In this document: positions 4,303-51,521 of the stretch, in pieces
Layout of the letters: each line of letters starts with the position of its first letter
Position numbering within the stretch: position 1 is the first letter of the stretch
From: Planctomycetota bacterium
GTDB taxonomy: Bacteria > Planctomycetota > Phycisphaerae > UBA1845
Direction: 5' to 3'
Assembly (NCBI GenBank): GCA_043806315.1
Contig: JAZDHF010000280.1
Coordinates: 2,972-66,971, forward strand
Length of the DNA stretch: 64,000 bases
Position numbers and translations under genes: made by a program
Notes under the pieces: model-generated
The model's input: only the letters and a program-made list of their open reading frames with translations
Databases searched by the model: none
What the model was told of the DNA's origin: nothing

Positions 4303-5136
4303 ATGGACGACGACATGGAACTCAAAGGCAAGGTCGCGATCATCACCGGAGGAGCGAGCGGCATCGGGAGCGCGACTTGTCTGAAGCTCGCGGAGGAGCA
4401 GGTCAAGGCGATCGGCGTCGTCGACCAAATGGACGATGTGGAGGACATCTGCCGTGAGGCCGACCATCAGGCCGGACGCGAGTTGTTCATACCGTTTCGC
4501 GGGGACGTGGTGGACAGTTCATTTCGGGAGCGTGTATTCGCCGAGATGGAGAGCCGCTTCGGCGTGGTGAGTTTGTGCGTTCCCGCAGCGGGGATCACCC
4601 GCGACCGATTGTGCGTCAAGGTCTATCAGAACAACGGATGGGTCACGCCGAGCATCTATAGCGAAACCGACTTCCGGCGGGTCGCCGATGTCGACCTCCT
4701 CGCCCCCATCTACTGGGCCATGCGGACGGTGGGGTCGGTCGCCGTCGACCGGGCGAAACGCGGGCTGAAGGAGTGGAGTCCGGAAGAGTCCGTCCAGGGG
4801 GCCATCATTCTCATCGGCTCGATTTCATCGGCCGGGAACCGCGGTCAAATTTCGTACGCGACGGCCAAGGCGGGATTGGTGGGGGCCCAGGGAACCCTGT
4901 CCAAGGAGGCCATCTACTATGGCGTGCGCTGCGCGATCATTCATCCGGGCTTCACCGACACGCCGATGGTCCGGGCGCTCGGGGAGAAGATGATCCAGGA
5001 GCAGGTCCTGCCGAACACCCAACTGCGGCGTTTGATCCGTCCAAGCGAGATCGCCGGGGCGATCGTGTTCATGCTCAAGAACTCGGCCGTCAGCGGGCCG
5101 CTGTGGGCGGACGCGGGGTGGCATCCACACGCGTAG
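4303..5136 (+). CDS. SDR-family oxidoreductase (acetoacetyl-CoA reductase-like)
   Basis: TGGASGIG cofactor motif and SYATAKAG (YxxxK). Sits in the pha cluster. Confidence 0.8.
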   Translation: MDDDMELKGKVAIITGGASGIGSATCLKLAEEQVKAIGVVDQMDDVEDICREADHQAGRELFIPFRGDVVDSSFRERVFAEMESRFGVVSLCVPAAGITRDRLCVKVYQNNGWVTPSIYSETDFRRVADVDLLAPIYWAMRTVGSVAVDRAKRGLKEWSPEESVQGAIILIGSISSAGNRGQISYATAKAGLVGAQGTLSKEAIYYGVRCAIIHPGFTDTPMVRALGEKMIQEQVLPNTQLRRLIRPSEIAGAIVFMLKNSAVSGPLWADAGWHPHA

Positions 5137-5254
5137 TGGGTGCTTCAATCGGCGGCCCAACGGCGAGAGTTCCTTCGTCCGACACGCCCACCTCGCCGGG
5201 AGCGATAGACGCTCATACTCCCGGGATCAGAAAACGGGTAGCAGGGTGCCGGGC

Positions 5255-5725
5255 TCAGACGCTCTTGCCACGCGGTTTTCCGCGACGAAGAACCAAGGTG
5301 ACGCGACCATACGTCGCGCCCTCAAGATCTTCAAGCGCGTGCTCGATATCAACGAACTTCCCGAGCTTACTGGTCCAGTACCCGGTTGCGAGCTGCCGCG
5401 CTGCATGGGTGGGAACACCCTCCTTGTTCGCGAAAACAGCTATCTTCTCGTAGCCCTGCTCGACAGCGTGAGAATCGCACTCCTCATAGCCAAGAAACGA
5501 GTATGCTGACGCGTACGCTGCGACCGAGTACTCGACCGGCGAGCCTTCCGGCCAGAAGTACTGAGGGTGGGGCTCCCACCATTTGCCCTGGTCGCCCGCG
5601 GCCCAGGCGATGCAGTTGTACCGAACGTCGGACGGGCTCGTGATCGTATACCTCGCGGGGCGGAGTTTGGGGAACCTCGATTCGAGCTCGCCCTGGATCA
5701 GATCCACCGTTGTTCGTACCCCCAT
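5255..5725 (-). CDS. Hypothetical protein with candidate Cys/His hydrolase motifs
   Basis: ORF 5255..5818, ATG at 5725 (alternative GTG at 5707). Motifs YNCIAWAAG, PTHAARQ and DIEH. Last gene of the three-gene operon. Confidence 0.5.
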   Translation of the reverse strand: MGVRTTVDLIQGELESRFPKLRPARYTITSPSDVRYNCIAWAAGDQGKWWEPHPQYFWPEGSPVEYSVAAYASAYSFLGYEECDSHAVEQGYEKIAVFANKEGVPTHAARQLATGYWTSKLGKFVDIEHALEDLEGATYGRVTLVLRRGKPRGKSV

Positions 5726-6120
5726 CGGATCCAGGCTTCCGCCATGGCGTCGACGTCGCCGGAGGATGCCGGGGATACTGGATTGACTCCCGTGATGGCG
5801 TGTAACGCCCAGAACCAATGGTCGCGTTCACGTAGCAGTTCCCGTAGAAGGAGAGGCAGCGCAAGCGGTCCCATCCCGATGATTTGTTGGTAGGCTGGAT
5901 GCATGCACATTTGCGGAAGGGAGGAGAGAAACTTCGTTTCTTCTTTCCACACCTTTGCCAGCCGGGCGAACTTCTGCGGGACCGTCTCCATCTGTCGCGA
6001 AGCTGGATCCCAGTAGTGCTCGAGAACGCTGCCAAGCCGCTGACGCAGCGTTTGAGCGTCCGGGCTGCCGCCAGGAGTTTGGTCCGGGCCGGGCACCCAC
6101 GTGAACGGCTCGAACTTCAC
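5698..6120 (-). CDS. Hypothetical protein (helical, W-rich)
   Basis: ORF 5698..6171. The GTG at 6120 overlaps the upstream stop (GTGA), suggesting translational coupling. An alternative ATG lies at 6171. Confidence 0.5.
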   Translation of the reverse strand: MKFEPFTWVPGPDQTPGGSPDAQTLRQRLGSVLEHYWDPASRQMETVPQKFARLAKVWKEETKFLSSLPQMCMHPAYQQIIGMGPLALPLLLRELLRERDHWFWALHAITGVNPVSPASSGDVDAMAEAWIRWGYEQRWI

Positions 6121-6914
6121 CGCGGGGAAGTCACCGGCGCGCCGAGTCCGCCTTGGCTGGATGCTGGGCATTCGAATAGGTCCTCGGTTTCCTTCGTGAT
6201 GCTTTCAAAGAAAACGCGGTTCTTGACGTTTCGAAGTTGCTCGAAGCGGTCCCAAAGATCAACCGCGTCCGGAGCGCAAGTTTCCTCTTGGAACGCATCG
6301 ATGTCCAGGATGATTGGCACAACATCCCGAGCATCCGACTGAACAACCGTTTGCGTCACAATTGCGGTGGCGCGTGGGTTATCGAAGGGAATTACGAGCC
6401 TGATAAAGAACTCGGACAGGCCCTGGGGCAGCGTCCGAGCCACTTCCGGAGTTGTGTGAAACCACCGACGAAGGTCCACAACGGGCGGCGGAATCTCGAT
6501 CCGGTTGATGTACCGAACCGCCATACGAAGAATCTGAATCGGCCGAGTTAGGGCCTTGTATCGATCCCATAGAGCCTCAGCCTCATACTTCAACTGCTCC
6601 CACGTTTCATAGGGCTTCAAGCGACTGAAGGTGAACCCGTCTTGGCGAGCCTGGACGATCTGATTCCCTTCGGGGGAGACAAACAGATACCCATCGACCC
6701 TGCCGGTCGGCTCGTGCAAACGCGGAACCGCACCCGGGGCGACTTCGAACTGGCTCTGCCACGACGCACGCTCGCGGCGATTGGGATACTGCGCACGAAT
6801 GCCGTCCTGAAACGTGGACAACGTTTCCAGCGTCACCTTCGCGGGGAGCTTGACGCGGATGTCAATCAGCGCTTCCGTGATCGGAGCGTTGGGAAGGTGT
6901 GGCCACTGCGACAT
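6117..6914 (-). CDS. TIGR04255-like uncharacterised protein
   Basis: 265 aa. N-terminal NAPITEALIDIRV and overall length recall the TIGR04255 family. This is from memory and was not searched. Confidence 0.55.
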   Translation of the reverse strand: MSQWPHLPNAPITEALIDIRVKLPAKVTLETLSTFQDGIRAQYPNRRERASWQSQFEVAPGAVPRLHEPTGRVDGYLFVSPEGNQIVQARQDGFTFSRLKPYETWEQLKYEAEALWDRYKALTRPIQILRMAVRYINRIEIPPPVVDLRRWFHTTPEVARTLPQGLSEFFIRLVIPFDNPRATAIVTQTVVQSDARDVVPIILDIDAFQEETCAPDAVDLWDRFEQLRNVKNRVFFESITKETEDLFECPASSQGGLGAPVTSPR

Positions 6915-7148
6915 CGGTCCAATCCCGTCCTACGCTACGCCGCCCCAAGTACATGCACCGGAACACCTCACAAACCGGACGCCTTTTCGGAGTGATGCTA
7001 CGGCCTCGCGTGCGAGTTGTAAACACCGGGTCGCAGGTTCACCTTGGCGCTCGGCTTCCGACCTGCGGTGTGACGGCGCTTATCTCCGGCCCATCCGGCG
7101 CTCCGCATTCGCCCACGAGTCACCGGCCACATAGTCGGGTCATCGACC

Positions 7149-7292
7149 AGGGCAATCGCATCTTAATGTGAAACGGCGTTTATCATGCTGATAATGCGGA
7201 GGCAAGCTGGCGGGATTAAGGATCCCGAACTGATCGAACCCACGTACCAGCCGCGCCACGCGGGCTCCGGCGATTTAGATGCGATTGCCCTG
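7149..7292. mobile_element. MITE-like non-autonomous element, copy 1
   Basis: About 144 bp. Terminal inverted repeats (C)AGGGCAATCGCATCT at both ends. Flanked by direct repeat GGTCATCGACC at 7138-7148 and 7293-7303. About 98% identical to copy 2. Confidence 0.75.
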
Positions 7293-7503
7293 GGTCATCG
7301 ACCCGACGCTTTGTCCCGTGCGTGGGGACGATTCGTCGGCCCTGCAAATCCGACCTGCAACCGATATTCACCCCGACCCCCCTTTATCACTACTGGGACA
7401 AGCGTTTTTGCACGTCTACAGACCCCTTTGCCAGTACTGATAACCCGCATAGAGGTGAACATCGGCTGCAAGTACAACTCTGCACTCCCCCACGAATCAC
7501 CAG

Positions 7504-9399
7504 TTACCCGTCACCGTTGACCGTCGACCACGCGGCCGATGTGGCGAAGCGGTGTTGGCGTTCGACCATATCGCGGTAGAGGCCGTCGTTGCCCATCAAC
7601 TCGACGTGGGTTCCGATTTCCACGATTCGTCCTTGATCGAGAACGACAATCATGTCGGCGTGGGTGACGGTGCTGAGGCGATGGGCGATGACGAACGTCG
7701 TGCGGGTGGAAAGTAAGTCGACCAACGACGCCTGGATAAGCTGCTCGCTCTCCGTGTCGAGGTTGCTGGTGGCCTCGTCGAGGATGAGGATTTCCGGGTC
7801 GGCCAGGATCGCGCGGGCGATGCTGATTCGCTGCCGCTGGCCGCCGGAGAGCTTCACGCCCCGTTCGCCGATGAGTGTGTCATAGCCTTCAGGAAGTCGG
7901 TCGATGAACTCGTGGGCGTTGGCCCGGGTGGCCGCGTCGATGATGGCCGACTCCCCGGCGTTGCGTCGACTGTAGGCGATGTTCTCGCGCACCGTGCCGT
8001 CGAAGAGAAACACCTCCTGGGGCACGATCGCCAGGTGTTGCCGGTAGCTGGCCAATCGAAGATCGCGCAGGTCGATCCCGTTAATGAGAATCGCGCCCGC
8101 CGTCGGATCGTGGAAGCGGGCCGCCAAGTCGGTGAGGGTGGTCTTCCCTCCGCCGCTCGGACCCACCAGAGCCACGGTGCTTCCCGCGGGAACGGTCAGT
8201 GACACCTCGTGCAAGACGGGGATATCCTTGCGATACTCAAAGCTCACCGCGTCGAAACGGATTTCGCGGATGGGGTACGGCGCGTCCACGGCGTGGGGCA
8301 CGTCGGGCTTCTCCTCTCGTCTTTCCAGGATGTCGAACACCCGCTCCAGCGCCGCCAACGCCTGTTGCGTCGCGCTGTAGGAGTTGACGATCAGCGAAAC
8401 CGGATGAAGCAACATCAGGGCGTACATCTGGAACGCGATGATGTCGCCGATCGTGCCATGACCTTGGACCACGCGATAGCTTCCGAAGCCGACGATGGCC
8501 AAGGTCGTCGCGGGAATCAGCAGTCCCCACCCCGAATTGACCACAATCTGCAACCGCTCGGCGAGAAGATTTTTTCGGATGATGGTGTGATGGGCGACGG
8601 CGTAATCGCGCTCCTCGCGGCGTTCGCGGCGGAAGGCACGGACCACCCGCAGCCCGCCGAAGGTCTCCGTGACGTGGGCGTCGATCCGCTCGCGCTCCTC
8701 GGCCATCGTGCGATAGATGGGGCGGACGCGCTGAATGTAAAGCAAGTTAATGAGGACAATCGGCGGAATCATCAGCCCGGCGATCAAGGCCATCTGCCAA
8801 CTCAGGAAGATCAACACGCCGACCGTCAGGATGACCCGAATCGAGGCCACGCCGGGAGTTATGACGGCGATTTGCACCATCCCCGTGACCTTGTCCGTGT
8901 CCTGCGAAAGGCGCGACACGATTCCGCCGGACTTCAGGTCCGCCAGCTCGCTGAGCGGGAGTCGCAGAAATCTCTCGAACAGCCGCTGCCGCAAGCGGAA
9001 GATGACCTTGGCGTTCAGGACGGCCATCAGGTACCAGCGGACGGTGTCGATCCCCTGGACGAAAAGCAACAGGGCGAACATCCCGCCGCACACCAGTGCC
9101 AGACGCCGCAGCTTCGCCGCCGAGTCGATCGCCTGGTCGGGTAGGACCTTGTCGATGATGTATTGCGTCGCCAGCGGCAGGACCATTCCCGCACCGACGC
9201 TGAGGAGGGCAAGAACGAGGATGGTCAACAACCTGGAGCGATGGGGCCAGAGCCACTTGCGGTATTGCCGCAGGTAGTGTTTGCGGACGCTGCGGTCGCG
9301 TATCGGCCGATCGGTCCGGGGCGCACCCGGATCGGTCCGACGCGTGGGGTCGGCGCGAAAGGCCCGATAGTGTTGCTTGGACGAAATCAACCTCGACAT
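7504..9399 (-). CDS. ABC exporter, fused permease/ATPase (MsbA-like)
   Basis: 631 aa. N-terminal TM domain, Walker A GPSGGGKTT, signature LSGGQRQRISIARA, Walker B ILILDEATS. Confidence 0.9.
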   Translation of the reverse strand: MSRLISSKQHYRAFRADPTRRTDPGAPRTDRPIRDRSVRKHYLRQYRKWLWPHRSRLLTILVLALLSVGAGMVLPLATQYIIDKVLPDQAIDSAAKLRRLALVCGGMFALLLFVQGIDTVRWYLMAVLNAKVIFRLRQRLFERFLRLPLSELADLKSGGIVSRLSQDTDKVTGMVQIAVITPGVASIRVILTVGVLIFLSWQMALIAGLMIPPIVLINLLYIQRVRPIYRTMAEERERIDAHVTETFGGLRVVRAFRRERREERDYAVAHHTIIRKNLLAERLQIVVNSGWGLLIPATTLAIVGFGSYRVVQGHGTIGDIIAFQMYALMLLHPVSLIVNSYSATQQALAALERVFDILERREEKPDVPHAVDAPYPIREIRFDAVSFEYRKDIPVLHEVSLTVPAGSTVALVGPSGGGKTTLTDLAARFHDPTAGAILINGIDLRDLRLASYRQHLAIVPQEVFLFDGTVRENIAYSRRNAGESAIIDAATRANAHEFIDRLPEGYDTLIGERGVKLSGGQRQRISIARAILADPEILILDEATSNLDTESEQLIQASLVDLLSTRTTFVIAHRLSTVTHADMIVVLDQGRIVEIGTHVELMGNDGLYRDMVERQHRFATSAAWSTVNGDG

Positions 9400-9542: not shown

Positions 9543-9621
9543 GTCATTCTGAGCGCAGCGAAGAATCTCCTTACGTGTCGAGATGCTTCGCTCCGAGATT
9601 CTTCGCTGCGCTCAGAATGAC
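9543..9621. repeat. Palindromic REP-like element (GTCATTCTGAGCGCAGCGAAGAATCTC arms)
   Basis: 27-bp arms at 9543-9569 and 9595-9621 are exact reverse complements. A related element lies at 12966-13030. Confidence 0.75.
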
Positions 9622-50862: not shown

Positions 50863-50997
50863 GATTAACTCCTAGACTTCCTAACGGACGCAAGCGCCCG
50901 GGCACTTCGCCATGGCCCGGGCCGCGAGTTTGGCGAGCCAGCATACCGTATTCGCGGCGAACCGAAAGGGTGTAACGCCGCGGCCCGATTCCGGGGC

Positions 50998-51141
50998 AGG
51001 GCAATCGCATCTTAATGTGAAACGGCGTTTATCATGCTGATAATGCGGAGGCAAGCTGGCGGGATTAAGGATCCCGAACTGATCGAACCCACGTGCCAGC
51101 CGCGCCACGCGGGCTCCGGCGATTTAGATGCGATTGTCCTG
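50998..51141. mobile_element. MITE-like non-autonomous element, copy 2
   Basis: Same orientation as copy 1, with 2 substitutions. Flanked by direct repeat GATTCCGGGGC at 50987-50997 and 51142-51152. Lies 136 bp upstream of the OPT start. Confidence 0.75.
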
Positions 51142-51521
51142 GATTCCGGGGCGCATGCCCGGGTGGGCAAGCCGGTTAACCAGCGAATCGCGACACTTGG
51201 CCCTGCAAGAGCCGACCCAATCAAGGAAGCTTCGCCGAATTCCGCTCTTGCCGCCGGTTGCGGGTGACCGCCACCGGCCCGAAACCGTATGGGATATGAG
51301 GACCGACGAACGCCGCTGTCCGGGCGCCCGCTCCGGCGGAGACGTAGCACGGTCGGATAGCTGACCGCCGGCCATGACCTTAACAGGCTGCAACACGCGC
51401 CTCGGCCCACAGCGAGCCCTTCTGTTCGCCGCACATCGGCAGTCAAGCAGCTCGGTCACGCGACGCAAATTCGCAACAAATACACTGGCGCTTCAACGCC
51501 GCACGGCGAAACGCGTGCCGC

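Follow-up and report, generated by a model that had tools for sequence, protein, structure and literature searches.

A planctomycete gene islet with a TIGR04255 head gene as a possible tripartite toxin-antitoxin-like cassette

What is the function of three small overlapping genes that lie between polyhydroxyalkanoate (PHA) genes and a miniature inverted-repeat transposable element (MITE) in a planctomycete genome? The genes, designated g1, g2 and g3 in the order of their transcription, occupy an islet at 5255-6914 of a 64,000-nucleotide stretch (the window) of contig JAZDHF010000280.1 from a Planctomycetota bacterium (assembly GCA_043806315.1). A sequence-only reading of the window had interpreted them as a horizontally acquired and co-translated module, possibly of a toxin/immunity or defence type. 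The open reading frame (ORF) table and the sequence bear out the three overlapping minus-strand genes as they had been described. We propose, with about an even chance of being right, that the islet is a translationally coupled operon encoding a tripartite toxin-antitoxin (TA)-like conflict cassette.

The conservation of the islet was examined by scanning one genome per GTDB species with a g2 profile, which returned at least 588 loci. The best 80 were mapped around g2 using hidden Markov models, and a tblastn version of the mapping was also done. In these loci, which as the best 80 hits of pattern scans are a non-random sample, g3 was found in full directly downstream of g2 in 57 of 74 testable cases, truncated or frameshifted in 10 and absent in 7; directly upstream of g2, g1 was full in 33 of 68 testable cases, truncated or frameshifted in one and absent in 34. 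When loci were anchored on g3 instead, g2 was immediately upstream in all 103 testable cases (72/72 from metagenomes and 31/31 from IMG/VR), and g1 was present in 22/42 metagenome and 19/31 IMG/VR loci. Gene order and strand were constant in all loci. Since g2 accompanies every testable g3 and g1 is present in about half of the loci, g2-g3 is the constant core of the cassette and g1 an optional head gene. The sequence-only reading would have been abandoned had the trio not been conserved elsewhere. The trio does recur as a unit, with the same order and strand over many phyla and on phage contigs, so this is not the situation found, although it is g2-g3 that is constant and g1 that is optional. 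Short apparent upstream genes at two loci (L083 and L081) were recognized as mis-called or frameshifted g1.

The best 80 loci came from Planctomycetota, Nitrospirota, Rokubacteria/Methylomirabilota, delta-proteobacterial lineages, Myxococcales, Spirochaetales, Cyanobacteria, Chloroflexota, Acidobacteriota, Armatimonadota, Cloacimonadota, Atribacteria, Omnitrophota, KSB1 and a metagenome-assembled genome of Peribacteria (L021), a lineage of the candidate phyla radiation (CPR). One cassette is on a 2.3-kb contig binned as Methanococcoides sp. (L030), possibly as binning contamination.

The decay of the core pair was found to be asymmetric. An intact g2 with g3 truncated or absent was observed at 17 of 74 loci and g3 without g2 at none of 103 (Fisher p = 1e-7, with both sets being best-hit samples). 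That g2 outlives g3 is the pattern expected if g3 is harmful without g2, since orphan antitoxins are then expected and orphan toxins are not. The genes downstream of orphan g2 copies were unrelated to one another. At one such position (L055, 6420-7322) there is a 300-aa ORF in which a transglutaminase-core-like motif, RQGTCGNMGVLYYSLCWRLGRP, can be seen by eye. Judged from this motif, the ORF might be an alternative papain-fold partner of g2; it had no sequence relative in the PDB.

Fusions between the families of g2 and g3 exist, indicating that the two act together physically. One such protein, P0397, joins g2 to g3 and is encoded in an island that also holds an Xre/RES TA pair, an IS1595 transposase and an AAA_14 ATPase. 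WP_004295351 is a 332-aa predicted lipoprotein which combines DUF7689, the family to which g3 belongs (Pfam E 9e-27), with a C-terminal g2-like domain (profile E 2.7e-9). The same protein is present on 11 Bacteroides/Phocaeicola plasmids, 10 of them typed as conjugative and the other as mobilizable, where its gene adjoins that of a MACPF-domain protein. In CapRel(SJ46), a C-terminal antitoxin domain reportedly autoinhibits the toxin to which it is fused. The Bacteroides protein likewise has its enzyme domain N-terminal and its g2-like domain C-terminal; however, it is a predicted lipoprotein and the domain families are unrelated, such that the architectures are only analogous.

The asymmetry and the fusions bear on the main alternative explanation, in which g2-g3 is an obligate two-subunit cysteine hydrolase or transferase with a non-toxic accessory function and g1 is a ligand- or substrate-binding helper. 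Its substrate could be a cell-wall precursor, an acyl/CoA thioester or a protein modification, for example, and the scattered distribution would reflect a niche-specific function. The strict g2-g3 pairing and the fusions suit an enzyme complex equally well as a TA pair. In addition, most neighbours are housekeeping genes, the position between an ABC transporter and pha genes is shared by a relative, and a fusion of DUF7689 to dephospho-CoA kinase (CoaE) is conserved between P0373 and P0404 at about 60% identity by eye. The papain fold also includes CoA-dependent acyltransferases. Yet an obligate subunit should decay with its partner, which is not the case for the 17 loci with an intact g2. No metabolic neighbour recurs, the pha linkage being seen in the window and its close relative; cassettes are found in phage genomes and inside restriction-modification (R-M) operons; and the same head gene precedes a zeta toxin elsewhere. 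We consider an accessory enzyme somewhat unlikely. Regarding the CoaE fusion itself, P0373 and P0404 share the fusion junction, with their identity estimated by eye rather than computed, and one contig is from JGI 3300047160; the fusion gene is preceded by a 112-aa gene, presumably g2. A functional link of the islet to the neighbouring PHA genes was considered and rejected, as only the window and one close relative show it and PhaC was missing from the neighbour families of other loci.

To the sequence-only reading, neither g2 nor g3 resembled anything that could be named. This held for g2 in the libraries named below, but g3 matched Pfam DUF7689 (PF24738) with an E-value of 5e-38 and 130.9 bits (gathering threshold 22.6) over model positions 2-117 of 118. 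The DUF7689 family comprises 4,486 clusters at 50% identity (E <= 1e-3). In the AlphaFold2 (AF2) model of g3 (predicted local distance difference test score (pLDDT) 93), C38 opens a helix (38-42), H107 is in a sheet strand (105-111) and H129 is in the next one (125-129). Among 161 non-identical family members with identities down to about 29%, C38 was present in 160, H107 and H129 in all and D126 in 159, while Y36, N37, W117 and K120 were invariant. In the predicted structure, a conserved cysteine at the start of a helix, followed by a conserved histidine in a strand and a third conserved polar residue in a later strand, is the pattern of the papain-like/NlpC-P60 superfamily. The model thus pictures g3 as a predicted papain/NlpC-P60-fold cysteine hydrolase with a Cys-His-His-type triad, C38-H107-H129. 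Foldseek searches of BFVD returned NlpC/P60, CHAP and Tse1-like proteins and tape-measure lysin segments (best E 2.7e-3, template modelling (TM) scores 0.51-0.53). There was no Pfam NLPC_P60 or CHAP match for g3 at E <= 1, and PDB searches with single sequences and with profiles gave chance-level matches only for all three proteins. As the sequence-only reading had supposed, the trio has no clear housekeeping homologues in Pfam, NCBIfam, PADLOC, PHROGs or PDB searches.

Peptidoglycan endopeptidases, the type VI secretion effector Tse1, lysin segments of tape-measure proteins and one phage tail assembly protein are among the fold matches of g3. Such matches would be expected of an exported system targeting the cell wall, which could be an NlpC/P60-type peptidoglycan hydrolase paired with an immunity protein, as in interbacterial effector/immunity systems, or a lysin that phages use in the tail or for lysis. 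The trio directly follows a tape-measure gene in three phage contigs, and the Bacteroides homologue is a lipoprotein next to a MACPF protein. Nonetheless, we regard export as improbable. No N-terminal hydrophobic signal sequence, lipobox or trafficking domain was seen by eye in the three window proteins and the aligned homologues, and the putative immunity gene lies upstream and likewise has no signal peptide. No secretion-system genes were among the commonest neighbour families. The positions in phages vary, as the cassette may follow a primase gene, precede a DNA polymerase exonuclease gene or lie between head and neck genes, and the module is also found in a CPR bacterium and on the contig binned as a peptidoglycan-less archaeon. 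Polymorphic toxins are not a match either: apart from the Bacteroides lipoprotein fusion, proteins of the g3 family stand alone at about 150 aa and show no N-terminal hydrophobic segment, and their partner gene is upstream. The cassette shares its predicted fold, the Cys-His-His-type arrangement and a small adjacent partner gene with Tse1-Tsi1, Tae/Tai and NlpC/P60 endopeptidases. It differs from NlpC/P60-CHAP effector/immunity pairs in having no Pfam NLPC_P60/CHAP match, signal peptides or secretion-system context, in the upstream position of its partner gene and in the weak Foldseek E-values of g3.

For the proposed TA-like cassette, g2 would be the partner of this enzyme. It had no match in Pfam, NCBIfam, PADLOC, PHROGs or the PDB, although its family numbers at least 954 clusters at 90% identity. 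The alignment revealed a conserved core, F..L...W..E....SS..MHPAYQQIIGMGP.A.PLLLREL...PDHWFWAL.AITG.DPV, which by eye may resemble a HEAT-like helical hairpin. The N-terminal segment of g2 (profile positions to about 35) was detected in 48 of 54 loci that have g1 and in 8 of 53 that lack it, counts which depend on a profile built from trio-type sequences. A g1-specific interface in this segment would fit the difference; alternatively, it may reflect subfamily phylogeny.

The assignment of g1 to TIGR04255 by the sequence-only reading was confirmed by the NCBIfam model (E 1.5e-44, 152.7 bits against a curated cutoff of 30), which was covered in full length (positions 2-252 of 252); g1 had no Pfam domain. 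Its AF2 model (pLDDT 87.5) has the order S1-H1-S2-S3-S4-S5-H2 twice, that is, two tandem beta-alpha-beta4-alpha repeats as expected of the fold of TATA-binding protein (TBP) domains. Foldseek against the PDB returned TBP chains with E-values of 2e-4 to 5e-3 and probabilities of 0.99-1.0, as well as S-adenosylmethionine decarboxylase (AdoMetDC). Since the TM scores are low (0.26-0.43), the resemblance to TBP is at the level of the fold and does not imply homology. We predict for g1 a tandem TBP-like fold with a curved sheet. Its invariant residues are mostly charged and at alternate strand positions (E14, D18, R49, D92, R130, R134, R138, D204 and D206), and we infer from the model that the charged concave surface may be a binding site for a ligand or nucleic acid.

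TBP-like domains have precedents in conflict systems. The anti-phage TA toxin RnlA requires a tandem TBP-like domain for RNA substrate binding (PMC8266594), and prokaryotic Schlafen defence nucleases carry fused TBP-like domains (PMC13056530). As in RnlA-RnlB and LsoA-LsoB, tandem TBP-like domains would here accompany a toxic enzyme restrained by a small partner, with toxicity and restraint being part of our proposal. In RnlA, however, these domains are fused to a HEPN RNase, whereas here the TBP-like protein has an optional gene of its own and a papain fold is predicted for the enzyme; RnlA was not in the top 50 Foldseek matches of g1 and has no sequence similarity to it.

In other three-gene cassettes, too, TIGR04255 is the head gene, there followed by pairs with no relation to g2 and g3 (Table 1). 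The gene is thus interchangeable with respect to the downstream pair, five types of partner having been sampled. Distant homology of these partners to g2 or g3 was considered and dismissed, since the hhalign probability was below 1% and the partners matched no Pfam family. Panacea/PanA is a hyperpromiscuous TA partner domain. Like it, TIGR04255 is one conserved component joined to several unrelated downstream pairs; unlike it, TIGR04255 is a third gene rather than an antitoxin, and the comparison involves the five partner types sampled here. These loci allow a broader proposal, which we advance tentatively and with some doubt: TIGR04255-headed cassettes may be an unrecognized and very widespread tripartite immune or conflict family, in which a free-standing tandem TBP-like protein senses a nucleic acid or ligand from an invader and then licenses interchangeable effector pairs. 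Such pairs would be an NlpC/P60-like cysteine hydrolase and a helical partner here and a zeta toxin or other proteins elsewhere, and the carriers would be chromosomes, plasmids and phages across bacteria, possibly archaea.

Several genomic contexts are of the conflict type. In Nitrospira the trio is located between hsdR and hsdS of a type I R-M operon. At another locus (L090, 7001-12862) the trio and a type III R-M pair (N6_N4 methylase and ResIII helicase) form a block inside a histidine-biosynthesis operon, where the two flanking His_biosynth-family genes are presumably hisA and hisF. One copy adjoins an N6/N4 methylase and a BglII fragment, another a RAMA-domain protein, and the P0397 fusion the Xre/RES pair and IS1595 mentioned above; a decayed copy is close to a group II intron. 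On phage contigs, the cassette either directly follows tape-measure genes or has terminase, portal, neck and replication genes around it.

The phage copies could also mean that the cassette is a phage-derived module for counter-defence or host takeover, with a protease inactivating host immunity proteins and the chromosomal copies being prophage remnants. There are 31 IMG/VR contigs with g2-g3 among genuine phage structural and replication genes, and the record of a P2-like Ralstonia phage has a TIGR04255 gene close to one of its ends. We hold this to be very improbable, as phage genes are missing from the surroundings of the great majority of loci and there are copies inside host R-M operons and housekeeping operons. 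Furthermore, in 50,697 GenBank phage records g3 had no match and g1 had one, and prophage cargo is defensive at least as often.

A number of observations weigh against the TA-like proposal. Among 256 flanking ORFs, most neighbours were ordinary metabolic or transport genes, and with a small R-M/TA panel R-M neighbours were detected at 7 and TA neighbours at 4 of 160 loci (11/160 together). The four Nitrospira loci represent one inherited locus rather than independent events, because their HsdR proteins are 85-87% identical; an apparent strong enrichment beside type I R-M was downgraded for this reason. At E <= 1 the three proteins were without a match in PADLOC-DB v2.0.0, PHROGs had no match for the trio, and g2 and g3 matched no TA family in Pfam, NCBIfam or PADLOC. 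In g2 there is no helix-turn-helix (HTH) or ribbon-helix-helix (RHH) domain, the DNA-binding motifs of classical antitoxins. The Foldseek matches of g3 in the PDB, dominated by AvrPphB, several NlpC/P60 endopeptidases and deubiquitinases (DUBs), are coherent but weak (E >= 0.13, TM up to 0.41). Two forms look unlike a dangerous toxin, namely the Bacteroides fusion, a predicted secreted lipoprotein, and the in-frame DUF7689-CoaE fusion of P0373 and P0404, which is located between polA and rho. In a related planctomycete, the same ABC-transporter and short-chain dehydrogenase/reductase (SDR)/PhaC genes flank a g2-g3 pair (g3 79% identical) that is stably resident there without g1. The non-random locus sets and the trio-type origin of the g2 profile count in the same direction. 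For the toxin/immunity or defence-type role that had been suggested from the sequence, then, the evidence is divided: g3 is never without g2, one TIGR04255 cassette ends in a zeta toxin, and the contexts include R-M, TA, insertion sequences and phages, but no known defence model fits and the neighbours are mostly ordinary.

We propose the following mechanism for the TA-like cassette. The effector g3 would be a cytoplasmic papain/NlpC-P60-fold hydrolase, cleaving some widely conserved cellular target at an amide, isopeptide or thioester bond. In an antitoxin- or adaptor-like manner, g2 would bind g3 and keep it harmless or controlled. As an optional and interchangeable head module with a tandem TBP-like charged concave sheet, g1 may sense a signal, of infection for example, in the form of a nucleic acid or ligand, or it may autoregulate the operon like omega in omega-epsilon-zeta. 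What the analysis established is the gene structure with its coupling, the family memberships, the predicted folds and invariant residues, the conservation of the unit, the asymmetric decay, the fusions, the modular use of g1 and the contexts; the toxicity of g3, its neutralization by g2, the substrate, the trigger, the role of g1 and any anti-phage effect are inferred.

The cassette was compared with known tripartite TA systems, namely omega-epsilon-zeta and also toxin-antitoxin-chaperone (TAC) and paaR-paaA-parE. These too consist of three small, co-directional and translationally coupled genes. In the arrangement proposed here, as in the omega-epsilon-zeta type, the effector would be encoded last and its protein partner in the middle, preceded by a separable component with an accessory or regulatory part. 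An annotated zeta toxin is the last gene of the TIGR04255-led cassette of the Vibrio plasmid, and in tripartite TA systems as in the cassette loci, orphan middle genes are common and orphan effectors absent. The differences are that g3 is a predicted cysteine hydrolase whereas zeta is a P-loop kinase, that g2 has no similarity to epsilon, and that g1 is a 250-aa protein of TBP fold rather than a small RHH repressor or SecB-like chaperone. On our best reading, the cassette would function like omega-epsilon-zeta-type systems and resembles RnlAB in its TBP-like domains while being a member of neither. We class it as a putative TA/conflict cassette built from novel parts that matches no known TA or defence family.

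Neither TIGR04255 nor DUF7689 was named in any paper that a literature search brought up. Nothing specific was returned for papain-like TA toxins or for NlpC/P60 in TA or defence, where the slash in "NlpC/P60" may have hampered matching. The three components are functionally uncharacterized even though the family is large, with the DUF7689 clusters given above and g2 in at least 588 species-level genomes. If the TA/defence proposal is true, a cytoplasmic papain/NlpC-P60-fold hydrolase would be a new effector chemistry, and bacterial conflict systems would gain a new partner family and a reusable TBP-fold head module. If the cassette is an ordinary accessory enzyme instead, the strict g2-g3 pairing and the fusions still define a new two-component hydrolase. 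TIGR04255 gains its first testable role, and C38, H107 and H129 of g3 are concrete residues to start from. Experimental follow-up is worthwhile because the cassette is broadly distributed and the predictions are simple to test.

The junctions of the islet were examined next to those of its homologues. The sequence-only reading had the stop of g1 overlap a GTG start of g2 in a GTGA at 6117-6120. This overlap exists, with the in-frame GTG at 6120-6118 and the g1 stop TGA at 6119-6117. In a junction survey, however, 61 of 67 homologous trios had a 4-nt ATGA overlap of g1 and g2 in the pattern TTCnnATGA. At 6179-6168 the window has CTATTCGAATGC, which is the family pattern with its last A changed to C. 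Because the ancestral TGA stop was lost by this change (ATGA to ATGC at 6171-6168), g1 is 17 codons longer and runs into g2. Accordingly, the last 17 residues of g1 are a read-through extension, as the homologues stop at ...ELF[KR]. Two relatives (P0241 and P0242, 82-92% identical) have the same extension, and the g2 of close relatives begins with MPSIQP as in the window. The ATG at 6171-6169 is probably the start of g2, with the GTGA being secondary.

The overlap of g2 and g3 was as the sequence-only reading had given it, 28 nt with the ATG start of g3 and 10 nt with the GTG start. An overlap of 4 nt is the commonest form of this junction in the family (60 of 141 loci, in a range from -32 to +12). 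Since the junction reads CTGA here, the start of g3 is shifted upstream to GTG 5707 or ATG 5725. The junctions are translational-coupling overlaps across the family, in support of the co-translation claimed for the islet. Adjacent small genes with coupled translation, as type II and tripartite TA systems require, are thus found in the window and in the family overlaps. A promoter scan yielded two sites with 0.5 expected, a weak result that was obtained with a sigma-70 consensus from which planctomycete promoters may differ; the minus-strand site at 7023-6995 is the sole candidate for the islet operon. A terminator scan of the islet was at background level with no convincing internal terminator, and an Rfam search of 4800-7800 found no RNA family.

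The islet had also been thought less GC-rich than its surroundings. This is true for all three genes, with a GC content of 0.583, 0.618 and 0.605 for g1, g2 and g3 against 0.630 +/- 0.019 for 32 long reference ORFs of the window, but the deviation is modest. GC at third codon positions (GC3) was 0.68-0.72 against 0.78 +/- 0.07 in the reference ORFs (z -0.8 to -1.5), and the codon-usage z was -0.65 to -1.2. The composition of the trio is mildly atypical and the compositional signal weak. Because of this mild composition and because the related planctomycete has g2-g3 at the same site, the acquisition of the islet is not recent. The horizontal acquisition proposed from the sequence is to this extent less well supported than had been stated. 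That relative (L088), the closest one with a long contig, has the same site without g1; the islet is therefore old here, and g1 was gained or lost within the lineage. At the position of g1 (L088, 6274-6591) there are about 600 bp with only a low-complexity 105-aa called ORF. An exact-sequence look-up of the proteins of the window found no record.

Table 1. Positions of the islet genes, their junctions and neighbours, and of related loci elsewhere
Feature	Location	Position	Strand	Remarks
g1	window	6914-6117	minus	TIGR04255 protein, 265 aa
g2	window	6171-5698 (ATG, 157 aa) or from GTG at 6120 (140 aa)	minus	no named family
g3	window	5725-5255 (ATG, 156 aa) or from GTG 5707 (150 aa)	minus	Pfam DUF7689
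Ancestral g1-stop/g2-start junction	window	6168..6171	minus	family ATGA, window ATGC
g2-stop/g3 junction	window	5698..5701	minus	family mode 4-nt ATGA overlap; CTGA here
Promoter-like site TTTACA-17-TAGCAT	window	6995..7023	minus	about 80 nt 5' of the g1 ATG; consensus scan
MITE, 147 bp	window	7147-7293; second copy 50996-51142		21-nt terminal inverted repeats, 10-bp target duplication
ABC-transporter gene	window	7504-9399		past the MITE
WP_004295351 fusion gene	L091, Bacteroides xylanisolvens plasmid NZ_CP041231	4839-5837		
TIGR04255 cassette	L128, Vibrio parahaemolyticus plasmid CP063527	158-2105		TIGR04255 + 179-aa protein + annotated zeta toxin
TIGR04255 cassette	L127, Crinalium plasmid	5001-6831		TIGR04255 + 182-aa protein (weak HEAT matches) + 171-aa protein
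TIGR04255 cassette	L129, Ralstonia P2-like phage YO139_2	194-2061		TIGR04255 + ~165-aa 'DWDGYG' protein + 131-160-aa protein
TIGR04255 cassettes	L123-L126, four viral contigs			TIGR04255 + same 'DWDGYG' pair as the Ralstonia phage
TIGR04255 gene	L130, Thermus pTB1			with 147-aa protein; adjoins VapBC, DNA methylase, Cas6

On one side the islet is bordered by an SDR gene that ends at 5136 and adjoins PhaC. On the other side, the MITE that had been reported next to the islet is genuine, as indicated by its inverted repeats, its target duplication and a second copy. The 21-nt terminal inverted repeats begin with CAGGGCAATCGCATCTTAAT, and the two copies are identical at 144 of 147 positions. Both are flanked by a 10-bp target-site duplication that differs between them, being GGTCATCGAC (7137-7146 and 7294-7303) for the copy beside the islet and GATTCCGGGG for the second. 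Just past the ABC-transporter gene, at 9543-9621, a perfect 27-nt inverted repeat (GTCATTCTGAGCGCAGCGAAGAATCTC and its reverse complement) with a 25-nt spacer gives rise to the 'SERSEES/FAALRMT' pseudo-ORFs of the ORF list.

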